DNA of 64,000 nt from Alphaproteobacteria bacterium (GCA_965205265.1 CBDBGH010000003.1:4864001-4928000); one strand, 5' to 3'. Numbered from the stretch's first letter, positions 7,586 through 64,000 are shown. The notes: generated by a model not told the origin, from the letters alone. Made by a program: numbers and translations.

Positions 7586-8437
7586 ATGCTTCCCAAAGCC
7601 ACAGCGGAACAGGTGGTGGACCAGTACGAAAGGGGGCGCCGTAATTTCAGGCGTCTGGACTTCTCCGGAGAGGATTTCACGCGGGATTACCTGGAAGGCG
7701 TCGATTTCAGCGAATGCCGACTGGACGGCGCAACCTTGATAGGGGCCCATCTCGTTGGCTGCCGGTTTACCGGGGCGAGGGCCTTGCGTGCGGACTTCAC
7801 CGGCGCCCGCCTGACGAGTTCCAATCTCGACCGGCTCGTTGCCGGAGGCGCGGACTTCTCGACAGCCGATCTGAACGGCTGCTCTATCAATGACGCCTCC
7901 CTGCGCCGTGCCGACTTTCTCGGCGCCCAACTGCAGGACGCCTCGCTCCGCTCGCTCAACGCCCCCGGCGCCGACTTTACCGGCGCCCGCCTCGAACGGG
8001 CCGATCTGACCGATGCAATGCTGCACCGGTGCCTCTTCCGGGAGGTCCTTCTCTACGAAACGAAAATGCTGGCCGTCGAGGCGAACGGGGCGGATTTCAG
8101 CGGCGCGTCGGTCTGGAGGACGGATTTCGGCATGGCGCAGCTCGTGCGCTGCGATTTCCAGGACGCAACAAGCTGGAAAGCCCATTTCCGGGATGCCCAG
8201 ACGGCCAACCACGGAGCCCCGAATTTCCGCGGCACCTTCATCAACCACAGCATTCTGAGCAACGCGGTCTTCCGCGACGCGGATTTCTCGGAGGCCGTCA
8301 TCCTGCATTCGGATTTCTCCGGGGCCGACCTGCGCGGGGCCCTGTTCGACGATGTCACCATCGAACATGCCGGCATGGAGGGAAGCCTGCGTGGGCCTTC
8401 GGAGCCTCATGAAGCGGGCGTGCCCGATCCCGGCTGA
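7586..8437 (+). CDS. Pentapeptide-repeat protein
   Basis: YERGRRNF N-cap, ADFxx repeats, tail EAGVPDPG. Confidence 0.95.
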   Translation: MLPKATAEQVVDQYERGRRNFRRLDFSGEDFTRDYLEGVDFSECRLDGATLIGAHLVGCRFTGARALRADFTGARLTSSNLDRLVAGGADFSTADLNGCSINDASLRRADFLGAQLQDASLRSLNAPGADFTGARLERADLTDAMLHRCLFREVLLYETKMLAVEANGADFSGASVWRTDFGMAQLVRCDFQDATSWKAHFRDAQTANHGAPNFRGTFINHSILSNAVFRDADFSEAVILHSDFSGADLRGALFDDVTIEHAGMEGSLRGPSEPHEAGVPDPG

Positions 8438-8822
8438 CCGCCGGGCGCCCGGGCTCCGGTTCTGGCCGCTTGCGCTTCTGTGGCTGCCGGCCGGGGTGGC
8501 GGCAACGGCGCTGGTCCGCTTCGGAGCGGACGGCCGGGCAGAGGGAGATCCCGGGACGGGACTTGCGGCAATACCGGTGATGCTGGGGTCCCTGCTGCCG
8601 CTCGCGCCTTGCGGCCTGCCGCTGGCGCTCGGGTGCCGCCAGCTTTGGCGGCTCGGCTATCGAGCCGCCGCCTGGGTAGCCGGCTTCGGGCTCGGCGCGG
8701 TCACCGTTGCGGCCGCGCTGCCGGCAGGACTGCTCGGGCCCGTCATGATCGCGGTCCATGCGGCGACGCTCAGTGTGCCGGTGTGGATCGCCTGCGTCTG
8801 GATCATCGTCCGCCGGAAGTGA
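8409..8822 (+). CDS. Small multi-TM membrane protein
   Basis: About 4 hydrophobic segments; start codon uncertain. Confidence 0.6.
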   Translation: MKRACPIPADRRAPGLRFWPLALLWLPAGVAATALVRFGADGRAEGDPGTGLAAIPVMLGSLLPLAPCGLPLALGCRQLWRLGYRAAAWVAGFGLGAVTVAAALPAGLLGPVMIAVHAATLSVPVWIACVWIIVRRK

Positions 8823-9025: not shown

Positions 9026-9880
9026 ATGCACGCACCAGCCTCCAGAGTGGACGAAATACTCGACCGCCTGAACCGTCAGGCCCACCGTTCATTCCGGGGT
9101 TTCGACCTCACTGGCCTGGATTTCGGCGACGCGCATCTCGCCGGCATAGACCTGACCGACGCCAGGCTCGACGGCGCGGACTTCTCGGGCGCCGATCTCA
9201 CCGGGGCCACCCTGGCCAACGCCTCGGCAGCCGACGCCCGCTTTATCGGCGCCAGGATGGAAGGGGGCGACCTGAGCGGCATCAACGCTTGCGGCTCAAA
9301 TTTCAGGGAGGCAGTCCTGACTGCCGCAAACCTCTTTCAGGCTCGACTGAAGCGGGCCTGCTTCGAGAACGCCCGGCTGGACCAGGCCTCGCTCGTCTGT
9401 GCCGATGCCGCGGGCGCGGACTTCTCCTTTGCCCATCTCAGGGGGGCCGTTCTGGCCGAAGCCGGGTTGGACCGCTGCTCCTTCAACACCGCCGACCTCA
9501 GGGAGGCCCGGCTTACGGCAATCCAGGCCAGGGGCGCGGATTTTCACGCCGCCTCGATCTGGAGGGCCGATTTCGCTCTCGCGCAGCTCGTACAGTGTTC
9601 ATTCACATCCGCAACGACCCGGAACGAGGATATCCTCCCCTCCGGTCCCCAGGCCCACGGCGCGGACTTCCGGGGGACGGTCATCAACCACTCCACATTG
9701 ATAAACGCGGACCTGCGCGGCGCGGGCTTCGTCGAGAGCTTCATCCTCCATTCGAGCCTGGTGGCCGCCGACCTGCGCGGCGCCGTGTTCGACGACACGA
9801 CGATCGAGAACACGGACATGGAACACGCCCTGAAGGGCCCGTTCGGGACAGAGCCTGCGGACGTGCCGGACCTCGGATGA
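9026..9880 (+). CDS. Pentapeptide-repeat protein (paralog of 7586-8437)
   Basis: Pentapeptide repeats; shares the FRGTxINHS and ILHS segments with the upstream paralog; tail EPADVPDLG. Confidence 0.92.
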   Translation: MHAPASRVDEILDRLNRQAHRSFRGFDLTGLDFGDAHLAGIDLTDARLDGADFSGADLTGATLANASAADARFIGARMEGGDLSGINACGSNFREAVLTAANLFQARLKRACFENARLDQASLVCADAAGADFSFAHLRGAVLAEAGLDRCSFNTADLREARLTAIQARGADFHAASIWRADFALAQLVQCSFTSATTRNEDILPSGPQAHGADFRGTVINHSTLINADLRGAGFVESFILHSSLVAADLRGAVFDDTTIENTDMEHALKGPFGTEPADVPDLG

Positions 9881-10053: not shown

Positions 10054-10629
10054 ATGAATAACCCGGACAATATCCCGACGGTCATCGCGCCCGCGCGCAT
10101 CTGGGCTGCGATGCATGTGCTGGTGGCACAGATATGCGAGGAATCGGAAAAGGTGCCCCCCGAGATGCATGACAGGGCCCGCGACATCCTCGACGAACTT
10201 CTTGACGATCACGTCCCCGACCCCCTCTGCCCGGGTTGGATATGGACCGACCGGCTTCGCCGCGCCGAACGGTTTACCCACTGGGACGACGCCGATGAGG
10301 CTCGCGACAGCATGCCGAACGCAACCTACGAGCCCCCGGTGCCGCATATCGACGAGACGCCGGAAGGCGAGTGGCTGGTGTGGACCTTCGTCCACGGGCG
10401 GCGCGTCTGGATTGCGCCGGACCTGAACCGGAAGCTCGAGTTGCTCCAGGCCACCATGGAGAAAGCCGGAGCCGATGTTGCCCAGGCCCGGCGCCTTCTT
10501 CAGGACTCGGAAAACCGTTACCGCCATGCCTGCGACGCTGTCGCCGTGCAAACGGCTGCGAACGCGAGACTGGCGGCCGAAGAAACCGCTGTGGGGGACA
10601 ATCCTGACGACGACCTGCCGGCGCCGTGA
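10054..10629 (+). CDS. Hypothetical protein with C-terminal coiled coil
   Basis: Natural-looking ORF behind site B; tail DNPDDDLPAP. Confidence 0.7.
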   Translation: MNNPDNIPTVIAPARIWAAMHVLVAQICEESEKVPPEMHDRARDILDELLDDHVPDPLCPGWIWTDRLRRAERFTHWDDADEARDSMPNATYEPPVPHIDETPEGEWLVWTFVHGRRVWIAPDLNRKLELLQATMEKAGADVAQARRLLQDSENRYRHACDAVAVQTAANARLAAEETAVGDNPDDDLPAP

Positions 10630-12646: not shown

Positions 12647-13345
12647 ATGAGCGAGCCGCACACCGACATGGAGGGAACCCCGGCACCCCGGGAAAACCTG
12701 AGCGCAGAGCGCGTCATTGAACTCTACAAGGAGGGACGACGCGATTTCAGCGGACTTGACCTTTCCTTCCGGTCCTTCGGCGAGGCCGTGCTGCCGGGCA
12801 TAGACCTGAGCGACACCAACCTCCAGAATTCCAGTTTCCGCGGAGCGTACCTCCGCCGGGCCGATTTCACCGAGGCATGGACGATCGGGGCGGATTTTTC
12901 GTTCGCCGACCTGCGGGAGGCCGATTTCACCGATTCCGGCGCCAACGCCCTGGACGGGGCACAATGCGAGGGGGCCCGCTTCTTCGGCTGCCATCTCTGC
13001 GATACGACGGTAGCCGGAGCCACCTTCGCCGGCGCGACTTTCCGCGGCGCCACCATCGAGGGAGTGTCCTTCGACGGACACGACCTGTCGGGTATCGACT
13101 TCTCCCGTGGCCATATCGTCAACACCCGCTTCACAAGAGCCAATCTTCACAAGGCGAAATTCCACGACACCCGGATCATCCAGTGCGGTTTCGACGATGC
13201 GGACATGGGGCTCGCCAACATGCGGGGAAGCTCGCTGGAAGACTGCGCCCTGACGCCCGGGCAGATCGATCAGCTCGCCGAAGGACCGGAGGTGGTGAGG
13301 ACCGGTCAGGACAGCCGGTTACCGGAACCGCCGCCCGAACAGTGA
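12647..13345 (+). CDS. Pentapeptide-repeat protein
   Basis: LYKEGRRDF cap; RBS AGGAGG; tail LPEPPPEQ. Confidence 0.93.
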   Translation: MSEPHTDMEGTPAPRENLSAERVIELYKEGRRDFSGLDLSFRSFGEAVLPGIDLSDTNLQNSSFRGAYLRRADFTEAWTIGADFSFADLREADFTDSGANALDGAQCEGARFFGCHLCDTTVAGATFAGATFRGATIEGVSFDGHDLSGIDFSRGHIVNTRFTRANLHKAKFHDTRIIQCGFDDADMGLANMRGSSLEDCALTPGQIDQLAEGPEVVRTGQDSRLPEPPPEQ

Positions 13346-13359: not shown

Positions 13360-14463
13360 ATGTCCCGCGATGAACTGCTCCGGCTCTATGCCGCCGGAGA
13401 GCGGGATTTCCGCAATGCCGACTTCTCGGGCGAAGATCTCTCGGACCTGGACCTCGGCGAAGCCCGGTTCCGGTTTGCAAAATTCCGAGGAACCACCCTT
13501 ATCAGCACAATACTTCGTCGAACCGACATAAGAGGGGCGGATTTCACCGGCGCGCTCATCGTTGGCATCGTGTTTGCGAGAGCCAATCTCGGTCAGGCGC
13601 GTTTCAACGACGCTCGAATAGCTGGCTGCGACTTCCATGGCGCCCTAATGGAACAAACAGACCTGCAAGGGGTGCGCCTCGAGAGCTGCGGGTTCCTTGG
13701 CGCCGGGATGGAACTGGTCAACATGAAAGGGGCCAACCTCGACCGCTGCGCGATCTTGGAAGAACAGCTGGCGGGTCTGACGGGCCAGCCTGACACCATC
13801 ATCCCGGATAAGGGCCTCCCGAAACGCTCTGCGTGCAGGAAGCCCCGCTTCTCTGACGTAGAACATATGGCCCGCGGCGAGCTCGCCTGCCGCTATGCGG
13901 CCGGGGAGCGCCGTTTCGAGGGTCTCGATTTCTCGGACGAGGACCTCTCGGGCCTGGACCTCAGCCATGCTTATTTCGATTTCTCGATCTTCCGCGGAAG
14001 CTCTCTCAGGAAGACGCGACTGCACCGGGCGCGTCTTGCAGACGCGGACTTGGCCGAATCCGACCTCCGGGAAGCGGACCTTTCGGAAGCAGGCATGGAA
14101 TGGGTCATGCTTGACGGTGCCGATCTCCGGCAGGCAATTCTCGATCGCACCAACCCGCGCTATGCCTCCATGGCCCGGGCGCGCTTGGCCGGGGCATCGC
14201 TGCGATATGCGGATATGACGGGGGCCCTCTGTTTCGGGGCGGATTTCACCGGCGCCGATCTCTCCCATACCTTCATCCATGAAGCGGACTTCCGCGAAAC
14301 CCACATCGCCGCCACCCTGTTCGACGGCGCCGATATCCGGAAGAGCCGTTTTCACGGCGCCGCTCCGGCAAAGGCCGGCATGCCCGGCGCCGGGGTCGAC
14401 GACGAAAGCAAGTCCACGATGAACCCGGCCGCGAGTGAGCCGGACGTCCCGGCCCCTGGGTAA
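13360..14463 (+). CDS. Pentapeptide-repeat protein with two fused modules
   Basis: Two caps (LYAAGERDF and RYAAGERRF); tail SEPDVPAPG. Confidence 0.92.
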   Translation: MSRDELLRLYAAGERDFRNADFSGEDLSDLDLGEARFRFAKFRGTTLISTILRRTDIRGADFTGALIVGIVFARANLGQARFNDARIAGCDFHGALMEQTDLQGVRLESCGFLGAGMELVNMKGANLDRCAILEEQLAGLTGQPDTIIPDKGLPKRSACRKPRFSDVEHMARGELACRYAAGERRFEGLDFSDEDLSGLDLSHAYFDFSIFRGSSLRKTRLHRARLADADLAESDLREADLSEAGMEWVMLDGADLRQAILDRTNPRYASMARARLAGASLRYADMTGALCFGADFTGADLSHTFIHEADFRETHIAATLFDGADIRKSRFHGAAPAKAGMPGAGVDDESKSTMNPAASEPDVPAPG

Positions 14464-14662: not shown

Positions 14663-15478
14663 ATGCCTCAAGCCGCCAGAGAGGCCCGCAAGCTGACGGC
14701 CGTCGACGTCCTGGCCCGTTACAGGAACGGGGAGCGTGACTTTTCGGAGTGTGCCCTGGCCGGCGCCGATTTCGCCGGCGCAGATCTTCGCGGCATCGAC
14801 TTCACGGAGGCAGATCTGCGCGGGGCGTCCTTCACGGGAGCCCGGCTCGACAATGCAAAGTTCAACAACGCCGCCCTGTTTCATGCCAAATTCTACGGAG
14901 CCCGGCTCGAAGGGGCGGAATTCATCTTCGCCTCGATGCATGAAGCGGACATGAGCCACGCGGAGTGTCCGCATGCGCGGTTCGACAGGGCCGACATGAC
15001 CAAGGTTCAGGCCGGACATGCCGATTTCACGGAGGCGTCCTTCCTGCGCGCCAATCTCGTGCGGGCCGCCATGAGTCAGGCGATCCTGGTGCGCGCCAAT
15101 CTCCACGGCGCGAAATTGGCGGGAGCCGACTTCTCGCAAGCAAACATGCAGGAGGCATGTATCGACAGGGCCGTCGCCAACGGCGCGGACTGCATCGGGG
15201 CCGACATGACCGGAGCCAGTCTCCGCATGGCGAACTTCGACGATTCCGGCCTGTCCGGAGTTAATCTCACCGGCGCGGACTGCAGGGACGCCTCCTTCGA
15301 CAATGCCGGCATGGAAGGGGCCATACTCGATCATGGCCTCTTCGACGGCGCCGAATTCACCTGGACGCAGATGGACGGGGTTTCCGCGAGAGGGGCCGAC
15401 CTCTCGGGCGCCGACACCAGCGACGCCACCCTGGACCTGTCGGCAACGGCCGGCACGACCGGCACGCCGGCTCCCTGA
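14663..15478 (+). CDS. Pentapeptide-repeat protein
   Basis: RYRNGERDF cap; tail GTTGTPAP. Confidence 0.93.
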   Translation: MPQAAREARKLTAVDVLARYRNGERDFSECALAGADFAGADLRGIDFTEADLRGASFTGARLDNAKFNNAALFHAKFYGARLEGAEFIFASMHEADMSHAECPHARFDRADMTKVQAGHADFTEASFLRANLVRAAMSQAILVRANLHGAKLAGADFSQANMQEACIDRAVANGADCIGADMTGASLRMANFDDSGLSGVNLTGADCRDASFDNAGMEGAILDHGLFDGAEFTWTQMDGVSARGADLSGADTSDATLDLSATAGTTGTPAP

Positions 15479-15483
15479 ACCGG

Positions 15484-16416
15484 ATGTCCAGACACGCAAC
15501 GGCACCAGGATCGCGAATGCGCCGCATCCCGCTCGTCAAGGCGTCTGAAATCCGGAAGGACCATGCTGCCGGCCGTCGCGATTTCCGGTGTATCGCGATC
15601 CATCCGGACGATACGGACCTCTCCGGCGCGGACCTGCGCGGCACCGACTTTTCGGGGGCCCTGCTGGCCAATGCAAACATGACCGACGCGAACCTCCGGA
15701 AGGCCAGGTTCACGGGTGCGGACCTGCGCGGGGCGCTGCTCATCCGCGCCAACCTGTCGCGTCATCCTCTGGACGACGCGAATTTCAGGCGGGCGGACCT
15801 GACGCGCGCGGACCTGACCGACGCCCGGTGCGCCGGGGCGGACCTCATCGGCGCCATCCTTGCCGAGGCCGACATGAAAGGGGCCAATCTCTCGAAAGCG
15901 GTCGCGTTGTGGGGGGACTTTACCGAGGCCCGGATGGACGCCATCGACTTCACGGGCGCGCGCCTGAACCACGCGCGCTTTCTCAAGGCCCTCGCTCCCA
16001 GACAACGTCCGGCGCTCTTCCGCGGGGCGGACCTCTCGGACGCCACACTTCGCGGGGCGAGTTTCGCCTGTGCCGATTTTGGCGAAACCGACTTGCGGCG
16101 CGCCGTAATGAGCTTCGGGATATTTTCCGGAGCATCCTTCCATGGAAGCAGGTTGCGCAACAGCGAACTCTCCTCGGCCAGCATGCGCGAGACCGATATG
16201 ACCGAAGCGGATCTCGCGTCGGCCGACTGCTTCGAGGCCGATTTTACGGGCTCCAAATTTGTGAACACGGGGGTTAAGGGGACGAAATTCGCTTACACGA
16301 AGCTCAGTCTGGTCGACTTCACCGGGACCGAGTTCGATCCGGCGAAAGCCTCTTCATGCGATCTTCAGGACGCCGTTTTCCCGGGACTCGCCGGCTCCGT
16401 CCCGGGTCCTGGCTGA
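15484..16416 (+). CDS. Pentapeptide-repeat protein
   Basis: HAAGRRDF cap; tail GSVPGPG. Confidence 0.93.
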   Translation: MSRHATAPGSRMRRIPLVKASEIRKDHAAGRRDFRCIAIHPDDTDLSGADLRGTDFSGALLANANMTDANLRKARFTGADLRGALLIRANLSRHPLDDANFRRADLTRADLTDARCAGADLIGAILAEADMKGANLSKAVALWGDFTEARMDAIDFTGARLNHARFLKALAPRQRPALFRGADLSDATLRGASFACADFGETDLRRAVMSFGIFSGASFHGSRLRNSELSSASMRETDMTEADLASADCFEADFTGSKFVNTGVKGTKFAYTKLSLVDFTGTEFDPAKASSCDLQDAVFPGLAGSVPGPG

Positions 16417-18289: not shown

Positions 18290-19357
18290 TCAGGGCGCTG
18301 CGGCCGGCTCTTCCTCCCAGGCGTCGAACCGGGCGCCCGTGCAGAAGGATTGGGCGAAAGACGCCGGCCGGTCGATGCGGGCGCCGCGGAAATCGGCTCC
18401 CGTGAAGTCGGCGCCCCGAGGATGAATACGGGCAATCTCCGTCTCTCGCAGATCGGCGCCTGACATCCTTGTTGCATCCAGGCCCGTCATGACGAACCGG
18501 GCGCCGCGCGCACGGAAGTTTTCGCATTCCGCACCGGACAGGTCCGCATCCTGGAGATTCACCTTCTCCATGGAGACGCTGCGCAACACCGCCCGGACCG
18601 CCGTCGTTCCGACAAGCTTCGCCTCGTCGAGGATGACGCTGCCGAGTTCGGCTTGCCGCATGTGCGCCCCACCGAGATCGGTCAGGCGCATGTCGGCACC
18701 GACCAGCTTTGCTCTTGTGAACGTGCAGTTCGCGAAATCCGCACCCGCCGCCCGGATGCCGGTGATGCGGGCGTCGCTGAAATCGGCGAGCCCGGCTTTC
18801 GCCTGCTCGAGAACACAGTCCCCAATCAGGGCGTCGGCGAACATGACCCGCAGCAGGTCGGCCTTGGCCATCCTGCACTTCAGGAACCGGGCCCCCGCGC
18901 AATTGGCGCCGCGCATCTGCGCTTCTTCCATCTGGCAATCGCTGAATTCGGCCTGGTCCAGCCGGGCGCCCTCGAAAATGGTGCGATACAGGTCCGTGCC
19001 GACGAAACGGCAGCCGCGCAGGTCGGCATCGACGAAACTCGCGGCAGCGAGTTCCGTTTCGTGAAAGAAGGCCTTCTCGAAGACCGAGCCCGTGAACACG
19101 GCCTCGCTCATCCGGGCGCCTTCGAAACGGCAATCCTCGAAAACGCAGTCCGTGAAGTCCGAGGCGCCGAGTTCCACGTCGTTGAACGGCGTGGCCTCGA
19201 AAAGGCAGCCGTCGAAATTGGCGCCGGTCAAATCGAGTTCGACAAAACCCGACCCGGGCGGCTCCGACCGGATGTGGAGGTCCCGAAAGCTGCGGTCGCC
19301 TGCCTCATACCGGGCAAGCAAATCCCGGGGACCGATCATTTGCCGTTCCGTCGCCAT
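18290..19357 (-). CDS. Pentapeptide-repeat protein
   Basis: RYEAGDRSF cap; tail WEEEPAAAP. Confidence 0.93.
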   Translation of the reverse strand: MATERQMIGPRDLLARYEAGDRSFRDLHIRSEPPGSGFVELDLTGANFDGCLFEATPFNDVELGASDFTDCVFEDCRFEGARMSEAVFTGSVFEKAFFHETELAAASFVDADLRGCRFVGTDLYRTIFEGARLDQAEFSDCQMEEAQMRGANCAGARFLKCRMAKADLLRVMFADALIGDCVLEQAKAGLADFSDARITGIRAAGADFANCTFTRAKLVGADMRLTDLGGAHMRQAELGSVILDEAKLVGTTAVRAVLRSVSMEKVNLQDADLSGAECENFRARGARFVMTGLDATRMSGADLRETEIARIHPRGADFTGADFRGARIDRPASFAQSFCTGARFDAWEEEPAAAP

Positions 19358-22402: not shown

Positions 22403-23041
22403 ATGGCCTACAGTTCATACGGAGGCTATGCCTTCCGCAATGGGGAACGCTGCGTTGAGCGCAGCGATGCCGTCATTACCGACCGGGCGGAGACCGTGCC
22501 GGGCATGTGGCCCGGCTTCGCCTTCGCGGCCCAGGGCCTCTCCCCGGAAGAAGCCCACAAGGAGATATGGAAGCAGAAAAACCCGCACGGCCATGTCGTG
22601 CTCGGCGACGGCCCGCTCCATGTCGGCCTCTACAAGCAGAGCGACGTCTGGGCATGGTTCGACGGCAAGCAACTCGACCTGCTGAAGCACGGGATCGACC
22701 TGCCCGAAGAGATTATCAGGACCGAGTGGTGGAGCGGTGCGCCCTGCGAGCCGCATATCGACCCGACCGACTGGGCCGAGCGCGGAGGCTTCGAGCCCGT
22801 CCGGTTCGACTTCCCCGACGGCAGCCGACTCGATGTCGTGTGGACCGTGCAGGACAACCACTATGTCTATGCCCGTCTTGAGCACCCGGATGGCACGGTC
22901 TGGGCGGGCTGGTCGGGATATGGCGTGGGCGCCGGCCTGGAGGACTGCGGATGGGGATTCTCCACGGAGGAACGCAACCAAGGGCTCGTGCGGATCTGGC
23001 CGGACGCCATCAAGGAGCCGGTGCCAGAACCGGGCCCCTGA
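22403..23041 (+). CDS. Hypothetical protein
   Basis: AGGAG RBS, GC3-rich codons; tail KEPVPEPGP. Confidence 0.8.
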   Translation: MAYSSYGGYAFRNGERCVERSDAVITDRAETVPGMWPGFAFAAQGLSPEEAHKEIWKQKNPHGHVVLGDGPLHVGLYKQSDVWAWFDGKQLDLLKHGIDLPEEIIRTEWWSGAPCEPHIDPTDWAERGGFEPVRFDFPDGSRLDVVWTVQDNHYVYARLEHPDGTVWAGWSGYGVGAGLEDCGWGFSTEERNQGLVRIWPDAIKEPVPEPGP

Positions 23042-23134: not shown

Positions 23135-23934
23135 ATGGATTTCAGGACGGTCACCGCTCCGGCCCTGCGCGATTGGCTGGACGCGGGCGGGGACCCGGAC
23201 GTCGAAGATGGCAACGCGGGGGCGGCCATTCACCAGGCGGCCGGTGCCGGGAACGTCGCGGCCCTGCGCGTCTTGCTCGCGGCCGGGGCCAGCCCGGACT
23301 CCCGCGATGGCTCCGACTCCACGCCGTTGCACCTGGCGGCGCGCGAAGGGCATGCCGATGCCGTGAAAACGCTTCTGGCCGCCGGAGCCGACGTTGAATC
23401 CCAGGACAGGGGGATTACCAGACGCCCTTGCATTGGGCCGCGTTGCACGACCCAAACGCGGAATCCCTGGAAGCGCTGCGTGAAGCCGGCGCCGATATCG
23501 AGGCCCAGGACAGTCTGGGCCAGACGCCGCTGCACATGGCGGCAAGCAGGGGGAATGCGTCGGCTATCGGGTTTCTCCTTGCCGCCGGCGCCGATGTGAA
23601 CGCCCGGCAGAAGGGAAGCGCCTTTACGGCTCTGCACGAAGCGGCCAGCTGGGGCGACCCGGAGGCGTTGCGCGCCCTGCTCGATGCCGGCGCCGACGTG
23701 AATGCCCGGGAGGTCTGGAGCAATTCCATCCCGCTGCATTTCGCCGTCCAGAACGTCCGGGGCGCAACCGGGGTTGTAGCAGCCCTCCTGGAAGCCGGTG
23801 CCGACCTCTCGGTGCGGAACAACCTGGGCAAGACGGCGCTCGAAATGGCTGTCCTGCACGGCACGTCCGAAATCGCTGGCCTTGTCGGCGCCGCAGCAGG
23901 ACAGGACTGGACCGCCCCGGAACCGGGCGCCTGA
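23135..23934 (+). pseudogene. Ankyrin-repeat protein, frameshifted at a G5 run (23409-23413)
   Basis: TPLHLAA / TPLHWAA / TPLHMAA / TALHEAA repeats split over two frames; tail TAPEPGA. Confidence 0.85.
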
Positions 23935-23967
23935 CGGCGAGCCATTGTGAAGGACGGCGACAACACC

Positions 23968-24618
23968 ATGAAGATCGAGGACGTCATTGAGCAGTACGGG
24001 CAGGGCCGGCGCGATTTCCGTGGCATCAGCCTGTTCGAGCAAAGGGAGCACAGCCTTGTCCTGCCAGGGGCGGACTTCTCCGGGGCGGACCTCCGCCTCT
24101 GCGAATTCTGGCAAGGCGATTTCACGGGAGCCGATTTCTCCGGCGCCTGGATGGGCAATATCAACCTGGTGGGGTGTAAACTGCAGGGGGCGGTTTTCGC
24201 GAAGGCGGAACTGTTCGAAGCCTGTTTCAGCGAGGCCGATGCCACCGGCGCGAATTTCGCCGAAGCGGGGATCCACGGCATCGACGCAACGCACGGCATA
24301 TTCAGGGATGCGCTGCTGACCGATGTCGATGCCCATGGCGGCAACTTCACCGGCGCCGCCATGAATGGCGCCGACCTGTCCGGAGGACGGTTCACAAGAA
24401 CGAACCTGTCGGGAGCCGATCTATCCCGGGCGGTCGCAAGGAACGCGGATTTTTCAGACGCTCTCCTTTATGGAGCAAAGCTCCGGAATGCGGATTTCGA
24501 GGGAACGGACATGCTGCGCCTGCGCATTTCCGGCACGGATTTGGACGAGACCCGCGTCCCGCCGGCGCGGATGACCATCCGGGAGCCGGAGAGCGGTCAC
24601 GGCCCCGAAGAGCCCTGA
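23968..24618 (+). CDS. Pentapeptide-repeat protein
   Basis: QYGQGRRDF cap; tail EPESGHGPEEP. Confidence 0.93.
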   Translation: MKIEDVIEQYGQGRRDFRGISLFEQREHSLVLPGADFSGADLRLCEFWQGDFTGADFSGAWMGNINLVGCKLQGAVFAKAELFEACFSEADATGANFAEAGIHGIDATHGIFRDALLTDVDAHGGNFTGAAMNGADLSGGRFTRTNLSGADLSRAVARNADFSDALLYGAKLRNADFEGTDMLRLRISGTDLDETRVPPARMTIREPESGHGPEEP

Positions 24619-34897: not shown

Positions 34898-34961
34898 CAT
34901 ACATGTTCGCACCGCGCAGGTCGGCACCGTCCAGGCAGGCCCGGTCCAACCCGGCGCAATC
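34898..34961 (+). repeat. 64-bp target-site duplication (second copy 36878-36941)
   Basis: CATACATGTTCGC...CCGGCGCAATC on both sides of the IS. Confidence 0.95.
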
Positions 34962-45945: not shown

Positions 45946-46359
45946 ATGCGCCGCTTCCTGAGCCAGGCCCTCCGGGCCCTTTCCGCCGCCGCCCTCGCCG
46001 TGCCGGCCTGGGCGGCCGCGGCCTTCCTGCTCGCGCTGCCCGCCGGCGCCCAGACCGGCAATATCGGCTCTGTGGCCGAGAACGTGCAGGGCCAGTTCGG
46101 CAGCCTCGCGGACCTTCTCGGGGCGGCCGCCTTCCTCGCCGGGGTCGGCTTCGTCGTGTTCGGCATCTTCAAGTTCTACAACTATTCCAAGAACCCCCAG
46201 GACCCGCAGAACAAGGTCGGCTCCGCCGTCATGCTGGTCGTCGCCGGGGCGATGATGATCGCCGTGCCCACCGTCGCCGGCGTCGGCGTCGTCTCCATCT
46301 TCGGCGAGGACAGCACCAGGGTGCAGATCGAGGGCGAGCAGCTCCGGAGCATCCGGTAA
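45946..46359 (+). CDS. IcmD/DotP-like (type IVB pilin-like) protein, copy 1
   Basis: Signal peptide, then IGSVAENV..FGSL..FLAGVGF..GIFKF..KNPQ and a second TM ending SIFG. Confidence 0.7.
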   Translation: MRRFLSQALRALSAAALAVPAWAAAAFLLALPAGAQTGNIGSVAENVQGQFGSLADLLGAAAFLAGVGFVVFGIFKFYNYSKNPQDPQNKVGSAVMLVVAGAMMIAVPTVAGVGVVSIFGEDSTRVQIEGEQLRSIR

Positions 46360-46401
46360 ACCCCGACACACGGCCTTTCCGACGCACAAGGAGTCCTGCC
46401 C

Positions 46402-46812
46402 ATGATGCATCGCTTCCTGAGCCGGGCCCGCCGGGCCCTTTCCGCCGCCGCCCTCGCCGTGCCGGCCTGGGCGACCGCGGCCTTCCTGCTCGCACTGCCC
46501 GCGGAGGCCGCGGACAATATCGGCACCGTGGCCACCAATGTGAAAGGCCAGTTCGGCAGCCTCGCGGACCTTCTCGGGGCGGCCGCCTTCCTCGCCGGGG
46601 TCGGCTTCGTCGTGTTCGGCATCTTCAAGTTCTACAACTATTCCAAGAACCCCCAGGACCCGCAGAACAAGGTCGGCTCCGCCGTCATGCTGGTCGTCGC
46701 CGGGGCGATGATGATCGCCGTGCCCACCGTCGCCGGCGTCGGCGTCGTCTCCATCTTCGGCGACGACACGCAGAAAGTGGACGCCGAGGGCTCCCTGCGG
46801 ACCATTCAATAG
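46402..46812 (+). CDS. IcmD/DotP-like protein, copy 2
   Basis: 218 bp identical to copy 1. Confidence 0.7.
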   Translation: MMHRFLSRARRALSAAALAVPAWATAAFLLALPAEAADNIGTVATNVKGQFGSLADLLGAAAFLAGVGFVVFGIFKFYNYSKNPQDPQNKVGSAVMLVVAGAMMIAVPTVAGVGVVSIFGDDTQKVDAEGSLRTIQ

Positions 46813-46838: not shown

Positions 46839-47825
46839 TCACGGCGAGGGCGATTCCTCCGGTTCCCCGAAGTTCCGGTCCGGTCTTCCGGCCAGCACCT
46901 CGTCGTAAACCGTCCCGACCACGATCGCCCGGAACAGGGCCCTTCGTTCCACCTGCCCCTTGTCAAGCGCCGCTCCGGTCATCACGGCATCCTCGAACAG
47001 CGCACCGTCCAGAACGGCCTCCTGAAGATTGGCACCCGAGAGATCGGCACTCCTGAAGACCGCGCGGTCCATCCGGGACTCAAAGAAATCCACGCCGGAA
47101 AGATCCGCCCCGGTGAAGTCGGCATGCCTGAGATCGGCCCCCTCTACCGTTGCCCCGGCCAATTGGGCACGGGCGAAAAGACCGAGCGCGATCACGCTGC
47201 CGCTCAGATCCGCCCCGGTCAAATCGCTGTTCGCGAATTTTGCCCGACGCAGTTTCTGCAACGACATGCTGTCGTCCGGGGCGATCCTGTCGATAGCGCC
47301 TTCGATCAGGCGGGCATTGCGCATCCACACGCCACGCATGACCGCTCCGGTGAAGTCGGCCCCGGAGGCCCAGCAATCCGTCAGGACCGCCCCGGTGAGA
47401 TCGGCCCCGTTGAACAGCGCATTGCACAGATTCGTTTCCCGCATGGCGGCACCGACCATGACCGCACGCTCGAACTTCCCGTCGGCCAGATTGGCATCCC
47501 TCATCTGCGCTCCGGTCAGGTTGGCTCCTGTCATCCGGCAATTCAGTCTGGCGTCCGTCAGGTCGGCCCGGATCAGCGTGGCCCCCGAAAAATCGGCGCC
47601 GCTGCAGGATGCCTGCCGGAGCTTCGCCCCGACCATCGCCGCCTCGCGGAACCAGGCGTGATCGAGGCGGGCGGCGCTGAAGTCCGTGCCGCGCAGCAGA
47701 CACCCGGAAAAATCCGCCCCGGTCAAGTCCGCCCCGCGAAAATCCATGCCCGACAGGTCGAGGTCGACGAAACGGCGCTCACCGTTGCGATACCGCCGGG
47801 TAATGTCGTCCCTGGTGATCGGCAT
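46839..47825 (-). CDS. Pentapeptide-repeat protein
   Basis: RRYRNGERRF cap; tail GEPEESPSP. Confidence 0.93.
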   Translation of the reverse strand: MPITRDDITRRYRNGERRFVDLDLSGMDFRGADLTGADFSGCLLRGTDFSAARLDHAWFREAAMVGAKLRQASCSGADFSGATLIRADLTDARLNCRMTGANLTGAQMRDANLADGKFERAVMVGAAMRETNLCNALFNGADLTGAVLTDCWASGADFTGAVMRGVWMRNARLIEGAIDRIAPDDSMSLQKLRRAKFANSDLTGADLSGSVIALGLFARAQLAGATVEGADLRHADFTGADLSGVDFFESRMDRAVFRSADLSGANLQEAVLDGALFEDAVMTGAALDKGQVERRALFRAIVVGTVYDEVLAGRPDRNFGEPEESPSP

Positions 47826-49109: not shown

Positions 49110-50207
49110 TCACGAGGGGCCCGAAAACCCGGAATCCAGGTTCTCGGCCCCGGGCCCGCTCGACGGATCGTTGAATTGCGTCTCCAGAGCCTGGAGGCGA
49201 TCATTGATCCATTCGAAAGCCGGGGCGTCGCCAGCCATCATGCCCTGCATGCGCCTGTAGTCCCGTTCCATCGCGGAGCGCAGTTCCGGCTGCGGAACCA
49301 GCCGCAGCGAACCGGGCACCGCCTCCTCGATTTTCTTCCATCTCTGCCGGAAGGCCAGCAGGGTGTGCTCCCGGGCCCCCTTCCCCACATCCAGCCGCCC
49401 GGCAGCATCCTTCCCGATATCCGTGCCGGCGATCATCGCGGTATCGTAGTAGTGCCGCGATATGCGCTCGGCCGACGGAATGCGGCCTTCGTCCCTGTAG
49501 CCGCAGTGGAACCCGTGAAGGATGAGCAGCTTTTCCCAGAAAGCCCTTGCCGGATGGATCGTCACGATTCCCCCCACCTCGAGGGGCAGGTCCGGAATAT
49601 CCGCAGCAACGAACGGGTCGATGGCCGTTTCCACAGCCATGTCGAGGCCGCCGCGCGCGCCGCCCTCGATCTTCACCCGCGGCTGCACGTAGAACGGCCT
49701 TCCCTCACCGGCAAGGACACTTCGATAGCCGACCAGAAGGCTCTGCCCGGACTGGTCGGCTTCATCGACATGGATGGCGCTCTCCGCGCCGGCCGCGTCC
49801 AGCGCGGCTCCCAACTCCCGGCGAAGATCAATCTGGATATAGGCGCTGCACGAAGCCCGGAGTTCTTCAAAAAGCCTTGCCCGCTTCGTGTTGGACAGGC
49901 CGCTGTCCGGATTTGTCGGATCCCGGTCACCGGCGAACCCGAGCGCTTCGCGCGAGACGGTAATGTCCACGTCCTCGGAGAAGCGGTCTATGAGGCCGAA
50001 CGACTTGGAAAGGGCGGTGCCTCCCTTGAACAGAAATGCCGGGTGACCCTGCGGCAGGCCGTGATAAAGCGCGTCCAGCGTCATGCAGACCCAGAAATCC
50101 TGCTCGACATAGGCGGGGACGGTTCCGATCCGCTCGGCGGTCTCCGTGAAGAGAAGCCTCCGCTCGGCCTCACCCAAGGCAAGAAACCGGCCGAAAGACG
50201 GATTCAT
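49110..50207 (-). CDS. AbiEii-family nucleotidyltransferase toxin
   Basis: VEQDFWV, FKGGTALSK, RFSEDVDI, FWEKL, SRHYYD. Confidence 0.92.
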   Translation of the reverse strand: MNPSFGRFLALGEAERRLLFTETAERIGTVPAYVEQDFWVCMTLDALYHGLPQGHPAFLFKGGTALSKSFGLIDRFSEDVDITVSREALGFAGDRDPTNPDSGLSNTKRARLFEELRASCSAYIQIDLRRELGAALDAAGAESAIHVDEADQSGQSLLVGYRSVLAGEGRPFYVQPRVKIEGGARGGLDMAVETAIDPFVAADIPDLPLEVGGIVTIHPARAFWEKLLILHGFHCGYRDEGRIPSAERISRHYYDTAMIAGTDIGKDAAGRLDVGKGAREHTLLAFRQRWKKIEEAVPGSLRLVPQPELRSAMERDYRRMQGMMAGDAPAFEWINDRLQALETQFNDPSSGPGAENLDSGFSGPS

Positions 50208-50836
50208 GTTGCCGGCCGCCCCGGGCCCGGGGCCCCGGCAATGCTGTCGACGATGGCGGCCATCCATGCCGGCACCGCGTCCCTGCCCTCGAGCAGGTCG
50301 CGCTTCACGCAATCCGGCAGGTTCCGTCTCAGAATCGCCGCCGTGCGCGGATGCCGCGCTTCTCCCGGGCCGAGCCAGTGCAGGGCCTGTATGACCGGGC
50401 CGCCCGGCCTGCCGTGCCAGTTCATGACGGTCGCGGTCGCGCGCGACAGATGGACGGTCCGCCGCCCGACCCCGATACGCCGGGTGCGGCCGTCCGTGGC
50501 ATAGGCCGCCCTGGCGGGGATGCCTTCGGAAAGACCGAGCCAGTTGGCCGCGGAGCACCCGTCCGGCATGATCCGGATATTGTCGCGGCGCGCGATCGCC
50601 TTGACGGCGGCCCCGAGATCGGGCGGCTCGGAACGGCCCAGAATCGCGCTGTATCGCGGCAGATCGTAAAGACCCCGGCCTACCCGGCGAAGCCGTCCGG
50701 TCCGGACCAGGCGTGCAAGGGCCCGGTCCACGGCCGCCCGACTGCCGAGGTCGAGAAAGTCCTTCGGCGTGCAGACCCACCGGCCCCTGCCGTGACCGCG
50801 CACCCGGCGCATGATCCTGTCTGCCAGCGAACCCAC
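50204..50836 (-). CDS. AbiEi/DUF6088 antitoxin
   Basis: PKDFLDLGSRAAVDRALARL...RRVGRGLY; 4-bp overlap with the toxin gene. Confidence 0.9.
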   Translation of the reverse strand: MGSLADRIMRRVRGHGRGRWVCTPKDFLDLGSRAAVDRALARLVRTGRLRRVGRGLYDLPRYSAILGRSEPPDLGAAVKAIARRDNIRIMPDGCSAANWLGLSEGIPARAAYATDGRTRRIGVGRRTVHLSRATATVMNWHGRPGGPVIQALHWLGPGEARHPRTAAILRRNLPDCVKRDLLEGRDAVPAWMAAIVDSIAGAPGPGRPAT

Positions 50837-55568: not shown

Positions 55569-56072
55569 TCAGAATCCGGGCTCCGGCAGGGCGGACATCG
55601 ATTCATCCTCTTCCCCGTGATCGGGACCGTGACCGTTGTCGTGCTCGAAGAGGATGCGATAGGTATCGTCTTCGATGACATGCGGCTTCAGCCAGTCATG
55701 GAAAGCCCCGAGGTCCCAGTCACCGGCGGCTACCTCGATGACCCGGTCCGCGATGTCATCGTTGGAAAGCCCCGGGTCGAGCCGCAACCCGTTTGCCGCG
55801 AGCATCGTCACCAGCGCGCCATATCCGGCCCGCTTGTTGCCGTCGACGAACGGATGGTTCTTGACGATCGTCCAGCAGAGCATGGCCGCGGCCTCGACCG
55901 TTTCCATGTCATCCGCATAGGCGATCGCATTGCCGACCCGCCCGACAGCGGACTCCAGCAATCCGAGGTCGCGGATTTCCGGCGCCCCTCCGAAACGCCG
56001 GATCATCACGTCATGCTGTTCGATGATGTCGGCGGTGTCCGGCAGGAAGATCGCCCGCCGGTCGCCGGTCAT
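55569..56072 (-). CDS. doc: Doc/Fic-family toxin
   Basis: IRDLGLLESA, HPFVDGNKR; extra tail EEDESMSALPEPGF. Confidence 0.92.
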   Translation of the reverse strand: MTGDRRAIFLPDTADIIEQHDVMIRRFGGAPEIRDLGLLESAVGRVGNAIAYADDMETVEAAAMLCWTIVKNHPFVDGNKRAGYGALVTMLAANGLRLDPGLSNDDIADRVIEVAAGDWDLGAFHDWLKPHVIEDDTYRILFEHDNGHGPDHGEEDESMSALPEPGF

Positions 56073-60914: not shown

Positions 60915-63900
60915 TCAGGCTGCCACCGGCTGCCGCTGCGGGCGGTCCAGGCTTGCCAGCACGCGGCGGCCCTCGAGGGCGTCCTTCGCTGTCGGCGGAC
61001 CGCCCGCCGGACCGCGCTGGGCGGCCACGCTCTTCGTCATCATTGCGCTCAGCGCCGCCAGACTGCGCTCGAGATGCACCATCTGCTCGGAAAACTCCGG
61101 CTCCTCTGCCGAAGCCGGGCTCGCCCCGGTTTCCCCGGCCACCAGCGTATTCTCGGCAAGAAGCATCCCGAGGATACCGGGATAGCGTTCCTTCGCCGTC
61201 GCCCCGTTCAAGGCCATGTCCACATGCTTCGCCCGCACCGGCGACGGCGAAGGCTTCGGTTCGGCCAACGGCTCCGTCTCCTCGCCGCCGTCCGCCTCGG
61301 CGGACGGTTCGGGTTCGAGGTCTTCGGCCAGCTTCACTCCTCCGCCGGCAGCGGCCGCCGAAACATCGCCGTCGCTGTCGCCGGGCGCCCCTGCCGCCGT
61401 TTCCGGTTCCGCTGCGGCCTCCGGCTCCTCGCCGGCCGCCTCGGCCAGAACCTCGAGCAGCAGGACCGGGGCGGCGGCAGGGGCCTGCTCCGAAACGGCT
61501 GTCCGGCATTCGACCAGCAGGTCCTCGCCCGCCCCCTTCGCGTCGATCTCCGGCGCCGGGTCGCTCCTGGCGATCCCGACAGCCGCCGCCTGCAGGGCCG
61601 TCTTGAAGGCCTCCTCGACCGACTGGTCCAGACCCGGCACCCGGTCGAGCGGGCCCCGGATCTTGAGGAAGCGGTTGACCGCGAATTCCGGCGCGAAGTC
61701 CTCGCCGATATAGAAGGTCCGGGCGAGCTCCAGCTTCGAATCGAACAGGAAGAAAAATTGTCCGGGCGCCATGTCCTGGAGATCCTGGACCTTCACCCGC
61801 GCCGTCTGCTGGAACGACACTTCCGGACGGTCGACCCACTTCCGCCCGTAGAAGGTCTCCTGAGCCTGCATGCCGCCCGTGACGGCCACCTGCTCCTCGC
61901 CCATGACCTTGGAGATATAGTCCATTGTTTTCGCCCCATCGACGGTCTTGCCGACAGCGAGCGTGCTTGCGTTCGCAAGCGCCGTCTCGGCGATCTGGGC
62001 GGACACCTTCTGCATGGCCGACATGTCCTGGCCGGCGAGGATGATGCAGAATCCCAGTGAGCGCGCCTGGGCCATCATCACATCGATGCCGTTCACCATA
62101 TAATACCCGACCTCGTCCAGAACAACGATGAACGGGCTCGGCGCCCGCGTCTGGTCGGCCTCGATGATTTCGGAGAATCCGCCCTGGAGCGTGGCGCCCG
62201 AGACCTTCGCCATCGTCATCTTGACGTTCGAGACGACGATTTTCCCGCAGTTGCGCATTTCCTCCTCGGCTTTTTGAAGCGCTGGAAGAAGGACAATAAG
62301 AATTCTCCTGTTTATGACAATATCTTCTATGTCCACTTCTCCAAGAGGCGTATTGAAAATATGACCGAAATCATCCGCCATACCGCCCAAAGGTTTCGTT
62401 AATTGCATACTCAAAAAACCGTACTGTTCTGATGCTTTACTTTCCTGCGGATCCCCGTTCAACGCTTTTTTAAGTGCAAAACCGGGCAAACTGTCGAAGA
62501 AACCTTTCAGCGCAAGCTTGCTGCTTGTCGAAAATTCCCCGCGCAAGGCGCGCAAATAAAGCTCGATCATCCCGCCACGTTCGCGCAATTCCGCCCAGGC
62601 GGCCTCCGGAACCTCCTCGATCTTCTCGATCTTGCCGGCCTTCCCGCCGAGCTTGGACTTCATGAAACCCTTGCCGAGCGGCAGGAAATCGCGGACCGCC
62701 TGCACGTTGAGCAGGATGTCGCCGCTCTCGCGCATCTCGACCAGGGCCTTCATCGCGCTGGTGACGAGCGACATCGCCCTCGACTTCCACATGTCGTTGC
62801 CCGAGCCGGCATCGCCCATCAGCGACACGATCAGGTTCATGAGATTGTCAGCCGAGCCCTTCGCGAACGGATTCATGGTGTTGGTCTGGGAGGTCGGCCC
62901 GCCGGCGGGGCGGTCCGAATCCTCCACGCCCATGAAGTTCAGCACCCGTACATCGTCCTCGCGCCCGAAACGCTTCGCGAGAGACCAGATGCGCGCGTAA
63001 AAGACTCTGGTGCCCTTCCCGTCAATGAAAAGGAACCCCGAAGACCACATCAAAGCCTGCGATATCAGGCCCAGCAGCAGCTCCGTATTGTGCGTCGTGA
63101 CATAGCCCTCGACGACATAGAGGCCGTCCTCGCGGTCGACCTTGAGGCACGACATTTCCGCGCCGGCCTCGACGGGCTCGACCGCGGCGATCGTGATTCC
63201 CTCCTCGTCGAGCCTGCCGACGAGGCTTTCCGGCAGCCCTGCCGAGGCGGGAAGCGCGAAATGCACCTCGAGCAGCGGGCCCTCGACCTCCCAGAGCGCC
63301 GCGACGCCGCCGAGCGACCAGACCAGTTCCTTGAACAACCGTCCCTCGCGCCAAGAGCGCACCGCCTGCACGGCGTGCAGGCTTCCGTCCCCCGTCTCCC
63401 GGTCCAGACGCATCTGCCCGCGCCCCTCCAAGAAGGAACGCAGGAACCGCGCCCGGTCCCCCGGTGTTCCCGACAGCGCCGCCGGCGTCCGGCAGGACTC
63501 CAGCAGGCCGTTCACGGCAAGGCGGACCTGCTCCCCGTCCAGGGCCGGATACGGCCCCGAGGACGGCCTGGGCGCCGGCACGGACAGCCGCAGGCAGCGC
63601 GCCGGGGATTCCTTGGCCGCATAGACGCCGTGCAGGAACCCCAGATCGTTCGCCGTCATTACCCGGTCGCCCCAGGGGATGCTGCCGAGCTTGGCCAGAT
63701 CGGCCCCGGGATCCTCGAGCAGGCCCCGGCTCCGGGCTTCCGCGGTCAGCGCTTCCTGGTACTGCCGCACCTGCGGCAGCGCCTCGGTCCGGACATGCCA
63801 CAGATGGTCGGGCGAGCAGTCGACGAAACGCCCGTCCGAAAACCAGATCCGGACAACCGGCTGCTCCCCCTGCGGATGCACCGAGAGCACCCGGCAGGTC

Positions 63901-64000
63901 CCGCCATGCGGATGGACCAGACGGTCGCCGGGCCGGAGATCCCCGTTGCGCCGCCATCCGAACGGCGTCAGGACCAGCGTGTCCAGGGGCAGGGCCTTGC
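60915..64000 (-). CDS. Type IVB coupling protein (DotL/IcmO/TrbC-like) containing an intein; 5' end outside the window
   Basis: GK|intein|TELLLG, FLFIDGKG, VRVLNF, TNTMNPF, VVLDEVGYY, AQARSLGF..ILAGQD. Confidence 0.88.
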   Translation of the reverse strand, partial: KALPLDTLVLTPFGWRRNGDLRPGDRLVHPHGGTCRVLSVHPQGEQPVVRIWFSDGRFVDCSPDHLWHVRTEALPQVRQYQEALTAEARSRGLLEDPGADLAKLGSIPWGDRVMTANDLGFLHGVYAAKESPARCLRLSVPAPRPSSGPYPALDGEQVRLAVNGLLESCRTPAALSGTPGDRARFLRSFLEGRGQMRLDRETGDGSLHAVQAVRSWREGRLFKELVWSLGGVAALWEVEGPLLEVHFALPASAGLPESLVGRLDEEGITIAAVEPVEAGAEMSCLKVDREDGLYVVEGYVTTHNTELLLGLISQALMWSSGFLFIDGKGTRVFYARIWSLAKRFGREDDVRVLNFMGVEDSDRPAGGPTSQTNTMNPFAKGSADNLMNLIVSLMGDAGSGNDMWKSRAMSLVTSAMKALVEMRESGDILLNVQAVRDFLPLGKGFMKSKLGGKAGKIEKIEEVPEAAWAELRERGGMIELYLRALRGEFSTSSKLALKGFFDSLPGFALKKALNGDPQESKASEQYGFLSMQLTKPLGGMADDFGHIFNTPLGEVDIEDIVINRRILIVLLPALQKAEEEMRNCGKIVVSNVKMTMAKVSGATLQGGFSEIIEADQTRAPSPFIVVLDEVGYYMVNGIDVMMAQARSLGFCIILAGQDMSAMQKVSAQIAETALANASTLAVGKTVDGAKTMDYISKVMGEEQVAVTGGMQAQETFYGRKWVDRPEVSFQQTARVKVQDLQDMAPGQFFFLFDSKLELARTFYIGEDFAPEFAVNRFLKIRGPLDRVPGLDQSVEEAFKTALQAAAVGIARSDPAPEIDAKGAGEDLLVECRTAVSEQAPAAAPVLLLEVLAEAAGEEPEAAAEPETAAGAPGDSDGDVSAAAAGGGVKLAEDLEPEPSAEADGGEETEPLAEPKPSPSPVRAKHVDMALNGATAKERYPGILGMLLAENTLVAGETGASPASAEEPEFSEQMVHLERSLAALSAMMTKSVAAQRGPAGGPPTAKDALEGRRVLASLDRPQRQPVAA
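63087..63995 (-). mobile_element. Intein (303 aa, Ala1, class-3 WCT signature)
   Basis: Starts ALPLDTLVLTPFGW; block B CSPDHLW; block F MSCLKV; ends VTTHN followed by T. Confidence 0.9.

Follow-up and report, generated by a model that had tools for sequence, protein, structure and literature searches.

The 64,000-nucleotide stretch analysed here (the window, C3:4864001-4928000 of the Alphaproteobacteria bacterium assembly GCA_965205265.1) lies within a 5.46-Mb chromosome of 68.2% G+C (GC); the assembly also holds contigs of 193 kb and 43 kb. The window belongs to an island of ~600 kb, taken as C3:4.745-5.35 Mb with both limits approximate, that carries genes for a Dot/Icm-like type IVB secretion system (T4BSS) and many proteins ending in an acidic, proline-tipped tail. 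The original prediction had proposed such a tail as a translocation signal on about 20 unrelated cargo proteins of a replicon, which proved to be the chromosomal island. All of the tails quoted there are present in the sequence, QEPLPSP being the end of an open reading frame (ORF) at 34638-34949 on the minus strand. The tail-bearing and related genes of the window are given below in window coordinates.

7586..8437, plus strand: pentapeptide-repeat protein, tail ...EAGVPDPG (Pfam Pentapeptide, 6e-35)
9047..9880, plus strand: pentapeptide-repeat protein, near-motif tail ...EPADVPDLG (two prolines without strict P-x-P; loose class)
10054..10629, plus strand: protein without a Pfam match, tail ...DDDLPAP
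12647..13345, plus strand: pentapeptide-repeat protein (Pfam), tail ...LPEPPPEQ
13360..14463, plus strand: pentapeptide-repeat protein (Pfam), tail ...SEPDVPAPG
14663..15478, plus strand: pentapeptide-repeat protein (Pfam), tail ...TGTPAP
15517..16416, plus strand: pentapeptide-repeat protein (Pfam), tail ...GSVPGPG
18290..19339, minus strand: pentapeptide-repeat protein, near-motif tail ...EEEPAAAP (loose class)
22403..23041, plus strand: protein without a Pfam match, tail ...KEPVPEPGP
23443..23934, plus strand: ankyrin-repeat protein (Pfam Ank families), tail ...TAPEPGA
23947..24618, plus strand: pentapeptide-repeat protein, near-motif tail ...GHGPEEP (loose class)
26458..27327, plus strand: pentapeptide-repeat protein, near-motif tail ...GGPNGP (loose class)
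27357..27755, plus strand: protein without a Pfam match, near-motif tail ...EAEEPGISP (loose class)
34638..34949, minus strand: ORF ending ...QEPLPSP, adjoining an insertion sequence (IS) copy and missed by the gene caller
46839..47825, minus strand: pentapeptide-repeat protein (Pfam), canonical tail ...EPEESPSP
50204..50812, minus strand: AbiEi/DUF6088 antitoxin-like protein ending ...APGPGRPAT, which matches the search pattern and is basic near the end; doubtful member
55569..56072, minus strand: Doc/Fic toxin (Pfam Fic, residues 12-91 of 167) with a C-terminal extension of ~35 residues ending ...EEDESMSALPEPGF
60915..64000, minus strand: DotL/IcmO-like coupling protein of 1163 residues, the gene continuing to 64406 outside the window
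45946..46812, plus strand: two tandem DUF6750/T4SS-pilin-like small membrane proteins without the tail (Pfam, first copy)
49110..50177, minus strand: AbiEii toxin, off-motif tail ...SGFSGPS
6641..7543, plus strand: protein listed earlier as YqaJ-like, without a Pfam match, off-motif tail ...NHLAPT

Genes were called with a codon log-likelihood model trained on long ORFs with high GC at third codon positions, and non-overlapping ORFs were picked greedily. This gave 5096 genes, 564 of them in the island; start codons are uncertain, whereas C-termini are fixed by the chosen frame and stop codon alone. P-x-P within the last 8 residues was found in 12 of the 55 window genes (6.6 kb onward) and in 126 of 4532 genes outside the island (odds ratio 9.8, Fisher 5e-8), and five further window genes have two prolines near the end without strict P-x-P. 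At least two prolines in the last 8 residues were present in 19/55 window genes versus 597/5041 (1e-5). Across the island, 114 of 564 genes, about a fifth, are tagged (114/490 without 74 multi-copy IS-like genes, none of which carries the tail), so that the count of about 20 given in the original prediction was too low. Between 4.80 and 5.33 Mb, 51 of 508 genes end exactly in P-x-P (PxP$) against 25 of 4555 elsewhere, and 108/508 against 128/4555 have P-x-P in the last 8 residues. Counted per 50-kb bin, PxP.{0,2}$ occurs 3-13 times in every bin of 4.80-5.35 Mb and 0-2 times over most of the remaining chromosome.

At 66-68% GC proteins are rich in Pro, Gly and Ala, and the original prediction asked for enrichment over a GC-matched background. 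Away from the C-termini, P-x-P is equally frequent within the island region (0.0041 per residue) and outside it (0.0040), and island GC (66-67%) is below that of the remainder of the chromosome. Because the internal density is equal inside and outside and the island GC is lower, the tail enrichment is not compositional. Enrichment also persisted among high-scoring genes (83/312 versus 98/3762 at scores of at least 40; 24/130 versus 66/2875 at scores of at least 80). On these three grounds a GC or composition artefact was rejected. A count that bypasses the gene caller gave a modest excess, with CCNNNNCCN-stop occurring 26.1 +/- 6.3 times per 50 kb in the island versus 19.2 +/- 4.7; the control, a pattern with TGG at its end, stood at 20.6 versus 17.9.

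The motif was profiled on the PxP$ proteins pooled from three elements, namely the island and replicons of Paracoccus and Gemmobacter described below (n = 130). D/E predominates at -5 and -6, a small residue (G/S/A/T) is found at -4 and S/A/E/G at -2, giving the consensus [DE][DE]-small-P-x-P-COOH. Over residues -10..-4 the pooled tails average 2.0 acidic and 0.45 basic residues, compared with 0.89 and 0.96 in the background. The E..PxP(G) form first proposed is more accurately given as a [DE][DE]-small-P-x-P ending on the free C-terminus, with the acidic part at -5 to -8. A strict motif, which requires PxP$ plus an acidic residue within -8..-4 and excludes K/R from the last six positions, was found in 41 of 564 island genes versus 13 of 4532 elsewhere.

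In the 51 PxP$ genes, the two proline codons are CCC/CCG/CCA/CCT in counts of 21/19/8/3 and 12/31/2/6, and the DNA 3' of the stop has an information content of ~0. Selection therefore acts on the peptide, since synonymous proline codons vary and nothing is kept past the stop; a DNA-repeat or terminator origin of the tails was rejected, as all four proline codons are used and conservation ends at the stop. TGA serves as the stop in 0.68 of tagged genes and 0.70 of others. Among 16 DUF6878 paralogues at 17-33% identity, the sole invariant columns are a W, a G and the two tail prolines. Thus the tag is positively maintained at the level of the peptide in ~114 proteins, which represent at least 56 unrelated families, and is confined to the island.

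With their tails removed, the 114 tagged proteins fell into 56 blastp clusters (19, 18, 16, 4, 3, 2, 2 and 2 members, plus 48 singletons), in keeping with the claim that the cargo is unrelated. A Pfam scan took in 106 of them, the remaining 8 crossing locus borders and being left out. It identified Pentapeptide (17), Ank (16), DUF6878 (10), Uma2 (4), Fic/Doc (2) and AbiEi (2) proteins, and single carriers with DnaB, Thg1, NTP_transf_8, Dam methylase, DUF2958, DUF3085, DUF7007 and PcfJ matches. Part of this set lies in a 21-kb same-strand array (window 7586-28638) of ~15 divergent pentapeptide-repeat genes amid ankyrin and orphan genes, and DUF6878 genes form similar tandem arrays at loci L008 and L012. 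Signal-peptide-like N-termini were seen in 1/114 tagged proteins, 32/450 untagged island proteins and 365/4532 in the rest of the genome; the corresponding counts for transmembrane (TM)-like segments were 5/114, 62/450 and 752/4532. Net charge over the last 15 residues was -1.68, -0.33 and +0.13, respectively.

The tails lie beyond the conserved domains, as originally proposed, and are missing from the 74 IS-like genes, which bears out the statement on transposases, as well as from RpoD and the secretion apparatus. The tails of the protein called YqaJ-like, which has no Pfam YqaJ match, and of AbiEii, both put forward as examples, are off-motif and were dropped. For Doc, alignment with homologues confirmed that the tail is an addition: ordinary Doc proteins (120-133 residues) end before the extension, which is found only in the nearest relatives, ending for example in LPEPGF, GPGF, PSPSFS or ELPEPQ. 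In the AlphaFold2 (AF2) model of Doc the fold stops near residue 145, and the last ~20 residues are coil with a predicted local distance difference test (pLDDT) value of 46-54. Homologues of tagged proteins in the same genome are tagged in 66/126 cases within the island and in 3/36 outside it. A DUF6878 profile search (1.84 billion representatives) found the tag on 12 of the 22 closest non-own matches and 3 of 109 at ranks 41-150, and in four same-genus genomes without DotM, 0 of 13 complete ankyrin ORF ends were tagged. By these comparisons and structure predictions, the tails have been appended to the folds of families that are unrelated to one another. For DUF6878, the largest orphan family of the cargo, the AF2 model has a pLDDT of 87; Foldseek gave no match for it at E<=0.001, and its best VIA-align row, the EsaD-EsaG complex 8guo_A (Z 5.5, root mean square deviation 4.3, 106 aligned), is within the tool's noise range, so that the fold suggested no function. 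On plasmid C1, two proteins ending ...SPSPFD (C1:21675-22427 and C1:64309-65061) have homologues in an island family whose members end in ...LPEPSPFD or LPQPSPFD; they are the only tagged homologues on another replicon.

The neighbouring gene had been called a Dot/Icm-type coupling protein, and the assignment held. The protein (window 60915-64406, minus strand) has IcmO/DotL as its best PDB match (6sz9_A, E 1e-108); its best NCBIfam match is TrbC (355 bits, below the 800-bit equivalog cut-off), and Pfam reports TraG-D_C/TrwB. Directly upstream lies the genome's single DotM/IcmP homologue (Pfam DotM_C, 102 bits against a cut-off of 27; PDB DotM, E 1e-11), followed by DotA/TraY (TIGR04346, 257.6 bits, cut-off 100). 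Clusters at 4.757-4.770 and 4.784-4.794 Mb add DotG, DotI, DotH, a VirB4-like ATPase, DotD, a DotC-like TraI, a putative DotB and PilB/T2SSF-like pilus genes. The outer-membrane core is represented by T4BSS_DotH_IcmK (143.8 bits), DotD (81.8) and T4SS_TraI (DotC-like, 164.7). IcmL/DotI scored 191 bits (cut-off 175), DotG/IcmE 167 bits, under its equivalog cut-off, and the DotB model 289.5 bits, the best match though under the 463-bit cut-off; a 1022-residue ATPase, the DotO/IcmB candidate, fits VirB4/TraC models weakly. The four other coupling proteins of the genome belong to other elements. Judged from these profile matches, the island holds the genome's only DotL/DotM/DotA-type T4BSS. Pfam Relaxase (MOBP), TrwC (MOBF), MobA_MobL (MOBQ) and TraI_2 (MOBH) had no match in C3:4.745-5.35 Mb, other relaxase families and oriT lying outside the search. 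Neither a type VI secretion system (T6SS) sheath gene nor an HK97 capsid was found in the genome.

In a HMMER alignment to Legionella DotM, 'DRRLWY' pairs with 'NRRLWY', and one further Arg is also kept; our own offset calculation maps these residues to R314/R315 and R217. According to an excerpt of PMC5802825, R217 and R314/R315 are among the Legionella DotM residues needed to bind acidic Glu-rich C-terminal peptides. A predicted complex of the DotM cytoplasmic domain (250-460, 18-row alignment) with the last 40 residues of Doc scored 0.00, without controls, and is uninformative either way.

Two further features of the coupling protein were observed. An intein-like insert occupies its Walker A loop (protein residues ~138-470) with the junctions GTTGSGK | ALPLDT...VTTHN | TELL, and its removal would restore GTTGSGKT. 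PDB matches of the insert are the gp41-1 and DnaB mini-inteins, and its first residue is Ala, not Cys/Ser. The C-terminal linker (residues ~960-1090) is acidic and Pro/Ala-rich, with an internal ...EPKPSPSP... resembling the tag.

Relatives of the system were then compared. The island's DotM was found in 0 of 40 relatives (16 of the same genus), and a single-protein query of species-representative genomes gave no close DotM relatives. Its closest homologues (72, 60, 55 and 54% identity) are metagenomic, the next ones (34-39%) are from Rhodobacterales, and PLSDB plasmids hold DotM relatives at 27-29% only. We sampled 400 kb of the 535-kb Paracoccus sp. ME4 plasmid NZ_CP151277.1 and 400 kb of its chromosome with self-trained gene models, and likewise the Gemmobacter caeni DSM 21823 contig NZ_QBKP01000002.1 with another contig as control. 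On the Paracoccus plasmid (DotM 36% identical), P-x-P in the last 8 residues occurred in 68/415 genes versus 16/392 on the chromosome (6e-9), and PxP$ in 37/415 versus 4/392. On the Gemmobacter contig (DotM 34% identical) the counts were 89/401 versus 17/368 (2e-13) and 41/401 versus 6/368. The strict motif occurred in 33/415 versus 0/392 and 35/401 versus 1/368. The carriers form 67 clusters from 68 proteins (Paracoccus) and 87 from 89 (Gemmobacter), few of which match anything in the island genome, and signal peptides are present in 1/68 and 2/89. Backbone genes matching the island best numbered 37 and 33, versus 2 and 1 in the chromosomal samples. Pfam Relaxase and TrwC had no match on either T4BSS replicon. 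Taken together, selection maintains the tag as protein sequence, it can pass from one fold to an unrelated one, and it goes with a lineage of T4BSS mega-elements.

Metagenome contigs of 302850 and 188107 nucleotides hold the 72% and 60% DotM homologues, and contigs of equal size hold tailed Doc and DUF6878 homologues; from equal size only, we infer that these are the same contigs. A DUF6878 profile gave 4 weak matches, in two genomes, among five DotM-bearing genomes, and the 10-kb flanks of related DotM loci contain mainly apparatus genes.

Taken at sequence level, the tail is probably a new, putative C-terminal translocation tag for type IVB export. The unstructured, acidic, proline-tipped tail would route cytoplasmic proteins to the island's Dot/Icm-like system. 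The coupling complex would capture it, by analogy with Legionella DotM, the receptor perhaps being the DotL-like ATPase, DotM or an adaptor, and the machine would export the tagged protein in one step into a contacted cell. Recipient or competitor bacteria could be the target, as suggested by Doc, the Uma2 nuclease, Dam methylase, DnaB and the DUFs of plasmid leading regions; the 16-18 ankyrin proteins suggest that it could instead be a eukaryotic host. For a wider scenario the chances are about even: that a lineage of 0.45-0.6-Mb plasmids and islands in high-GC environmental bacteria, represented so far by the present genome, the Paracoccus plasmid and the Gemmobacter contig, uses a Dot/Icm-like machine lacking any recognisable relaxase to inject ~70-115 mostly orphan proteins per element via the tag. 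The proposal of a delivery tag thus gained partial support, the association with the machine recurring on the two named replicons. Full-text literature searches found no description of such a tag.

With Legionella/Coxiella Dot/Icm, in which the DotL-DotM-DotN coupling complex reads the C-terminal signal, the island shares DotL, DotM, DotA, DotC/D/H, DotG and DotI homologues and a putative DotB. The signal is in both cases short, C-terminal, unstructured and acidic, and its bearers are many and unrelated, ankyrin and Fic proteins among them. The DotM arginines mapped to R217 and R314/R315 are kept in both (PMC5802825, in excerpt). A fixed P-x-P at the free C-terminus is a feature of the tag and not of the Legionella E-block, for which an excerpt of PMC3096851 gives a cluster of 3-6 acidic residues in the last ~25, in most cases beginning 11-18 residues before the C-terminus. 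Unlike Legionella/Coxiella Dot/Icm, the present system is located on mobile replicons of 0.45-0.6 Mb or on an island, and its hosts are high-GC bacteria, the two replicate replicons coming from Paracoccus and Gemmobacter and not from Legionellales.

Conjugation systems of the I-type (IncI1 R64/ColIb-P9) likewise deliver proteins into recipients, the Sog primase being one example. The island resembles them in its coupling protein (best NCBIfam match TrbC), its TraO, TraY and TraI(DotC)-type matches, a PilB-like ATPase, a T2SSF protein and TcpQ-domain proteins recalling the IncI thin pilus, and the primase, helicase, methylases and toxin-antitoxin modules of the element. It differs in that the four relaxase Pfam families searched have no match and that DotB, DotG and DotI score higher against Dot/Icm models than against plasmid models; moreover, we know of no comparable tag or ~100-protein cargo set for IncI plasmids. 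Among other type IV secretion system (T4SS) signals are the Arg-rich C-termini of VirB/D4 substrates, Bartonella BID domains and Xanthomonadales XVIPCD domains. C-terminal position and coupling-protein recognition are general principles shared with the tag, but in those type IVA systems the signal is either a basic tail or a folded domain of ~100 residues, and the tag is a 6-10-residue acidic, proline-tipped tail in a type IVB system.

Other explanations of the tail were considered. It might be a stability or translation feature of the element's accessory proteins (a C-terminal proteolysis or degron cap, or a termination-slowing Pro-stop) that co-travels with the element. In E. coli a proline at the C-terminus does slow termination, some carriers (DnaB and AbiEi, for example) would be expected to act in the donor cell, and the tag is linked to the element and only presumptively to the machine. 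We nevertheless consider this explanation unlikely, as it leaves unexplained the coupled acidic block (2.0 versus 0.9 acidic residues at -10..-4), the scarcity of signal peptides and TM segments among carriers, and the absence of the tail from the elements' own apparatus and IS genes, and as the stop-codon usage of tagged genes is like that of others. Somewhat less probable again is a sorting tag for another co-encoded machine or adaptor, for export, vesicle loading or modification, with the T4BSS a mere co-resident. In its favour, most island genes have no family assignment, and three DotM contigs of one Paracoccaceae genome lack the tag, so that the presence of DotM alone is not predictive. 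Among the families searched, however, the T4BSS is the sole large export machine found in the island (T6SS sheath and HK97 capsid genes being absent from the genome), and it is part of the backbone common to the Paracoccus and Gemmobacter replicons. Unstructured acidic C-terminal signals are, moreover, the known recognition mode of this machine in the excerpts of PMC5802825 and PMC3096851.

It is very improbable, and already largely refuted, that the pattern arises artificially from high-GC composition, spurious ORFs, common descent within a small number of paralogous families or a DNA repeat located where genes end. Apart from base composition, such an origin could draw on three families (19, 18 and 16 members) that make up 53 of the 114 carriers, and on a home-made gene caller whose caller-free counterpart is only modestly raised. 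Against it stand the equal internal P-x-P density at lower island GC, the persistence among high-scoring genes, the 48 singleton carriers here and the 67 and 87 clusters on the two other replicons, and the varied proline codons without conservation past the stop; matched controls come from the hosts' own chromosomes.

Several observations weigh against a role of the tail in type IVB export. The evidence tying the tag to export is association throughout, the gene calls are home-made, and ~2.8% of ordinary genes fit the loose pattern by chance. The carriers include odd substrates, for example the DnaB helicase and the AbiEi antitoxin. Legionella DotM R196/R197 lie outside the aligned region, and DotM is a candidate receptor of the tag. 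The acidic block of the tag, at -5 to -8, is nearer the end than the E-block as defined in PMC3096851. On Gemmobacter C2, internal P-x-P density is 1.7-fold above that of the control contig. In the metagenome-assembled genome (MAG) G041, which holds the 54% DotM homologue, DUF6878 had no match and the two ankyrin ORFs examined lack P-x-P. The three DotM contigs C5, C13 and C12 of the Paracoccaceae MAG G045 showed no enrichment (3/127, 1/84 and 2/80, with gene calling weak at that GC), and the tag therefore does not follow every DotM; these three loci may be ordinary conjugative I-type systems and would then be usable as negative controls.

A sharp C-terminal motif thus marks ~20% of the genes in three large elements. 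Type IV effector repertoires are hard to predict because known type IV signals are weak and degenerate. If the tag is an export signal, more than 250 candidate substrates could be read from sequence alone, and because it is anchored at the free C-terminus, effector repertoires would become readable in organisms never suspected of injection. It would also provide a minimal portable tag for probing how DotL/DotM read substrates, and would extend Dot/Icm-like injection with large effector sets beyond Legionellales, to mobile mega-replicons of free-living Paracoccus and Gemmobacter. It would further make it possible to test whether large elements related to conjugation systems deliver a mix of proteins before DNA or in its place.

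The island looks like an integrated megaplasmid or chromid. No tRNA was found at either end, and IS copies crowd both; comparison of IS DNA with plasmids gave no match. An identical 551-residue DDE transposase has 56 copies genome-wide, 13 of these in the island, and IS21-type pairs (501 + 261 residues) and further IS copies are frequent in the island and at both of its borders. Sigma-70, primase, replicative helicase, ribonucleotide reductase, topoisomerase and RecD2 are all encoded on the island itself, and these replication and transcription genes probably explain the 7.28% 'contamination' value of this assembly. It also encodes a Cas9-like protein (RuvC_III, HNH and Cas9 alpha lobe), a second HNH protein of 780 residues and a GSU0054-family Cas protein. 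The positions of these genes are as follows.

Window 4907-6562, 29043-30698 and 35065-36720, others elsewhere: 551-residue DDE transposase copies
Window 10643-12457: rpoD, island-borne sigma-70, without the tail
Window 56394-58238: dnaG primase
C3:5254597-5256228 (island): DnaB helicase, tagged
L024:3608-7093: class II ribonucleotide reductase
L007:2856-5261: topoisomerase
L015:7293-10463, minus strand: Cas9-like protein
L013:4427-6769, minus strand: second HNH protein
L011:5981-8173, minus strand: GSU0054-family Cas protein

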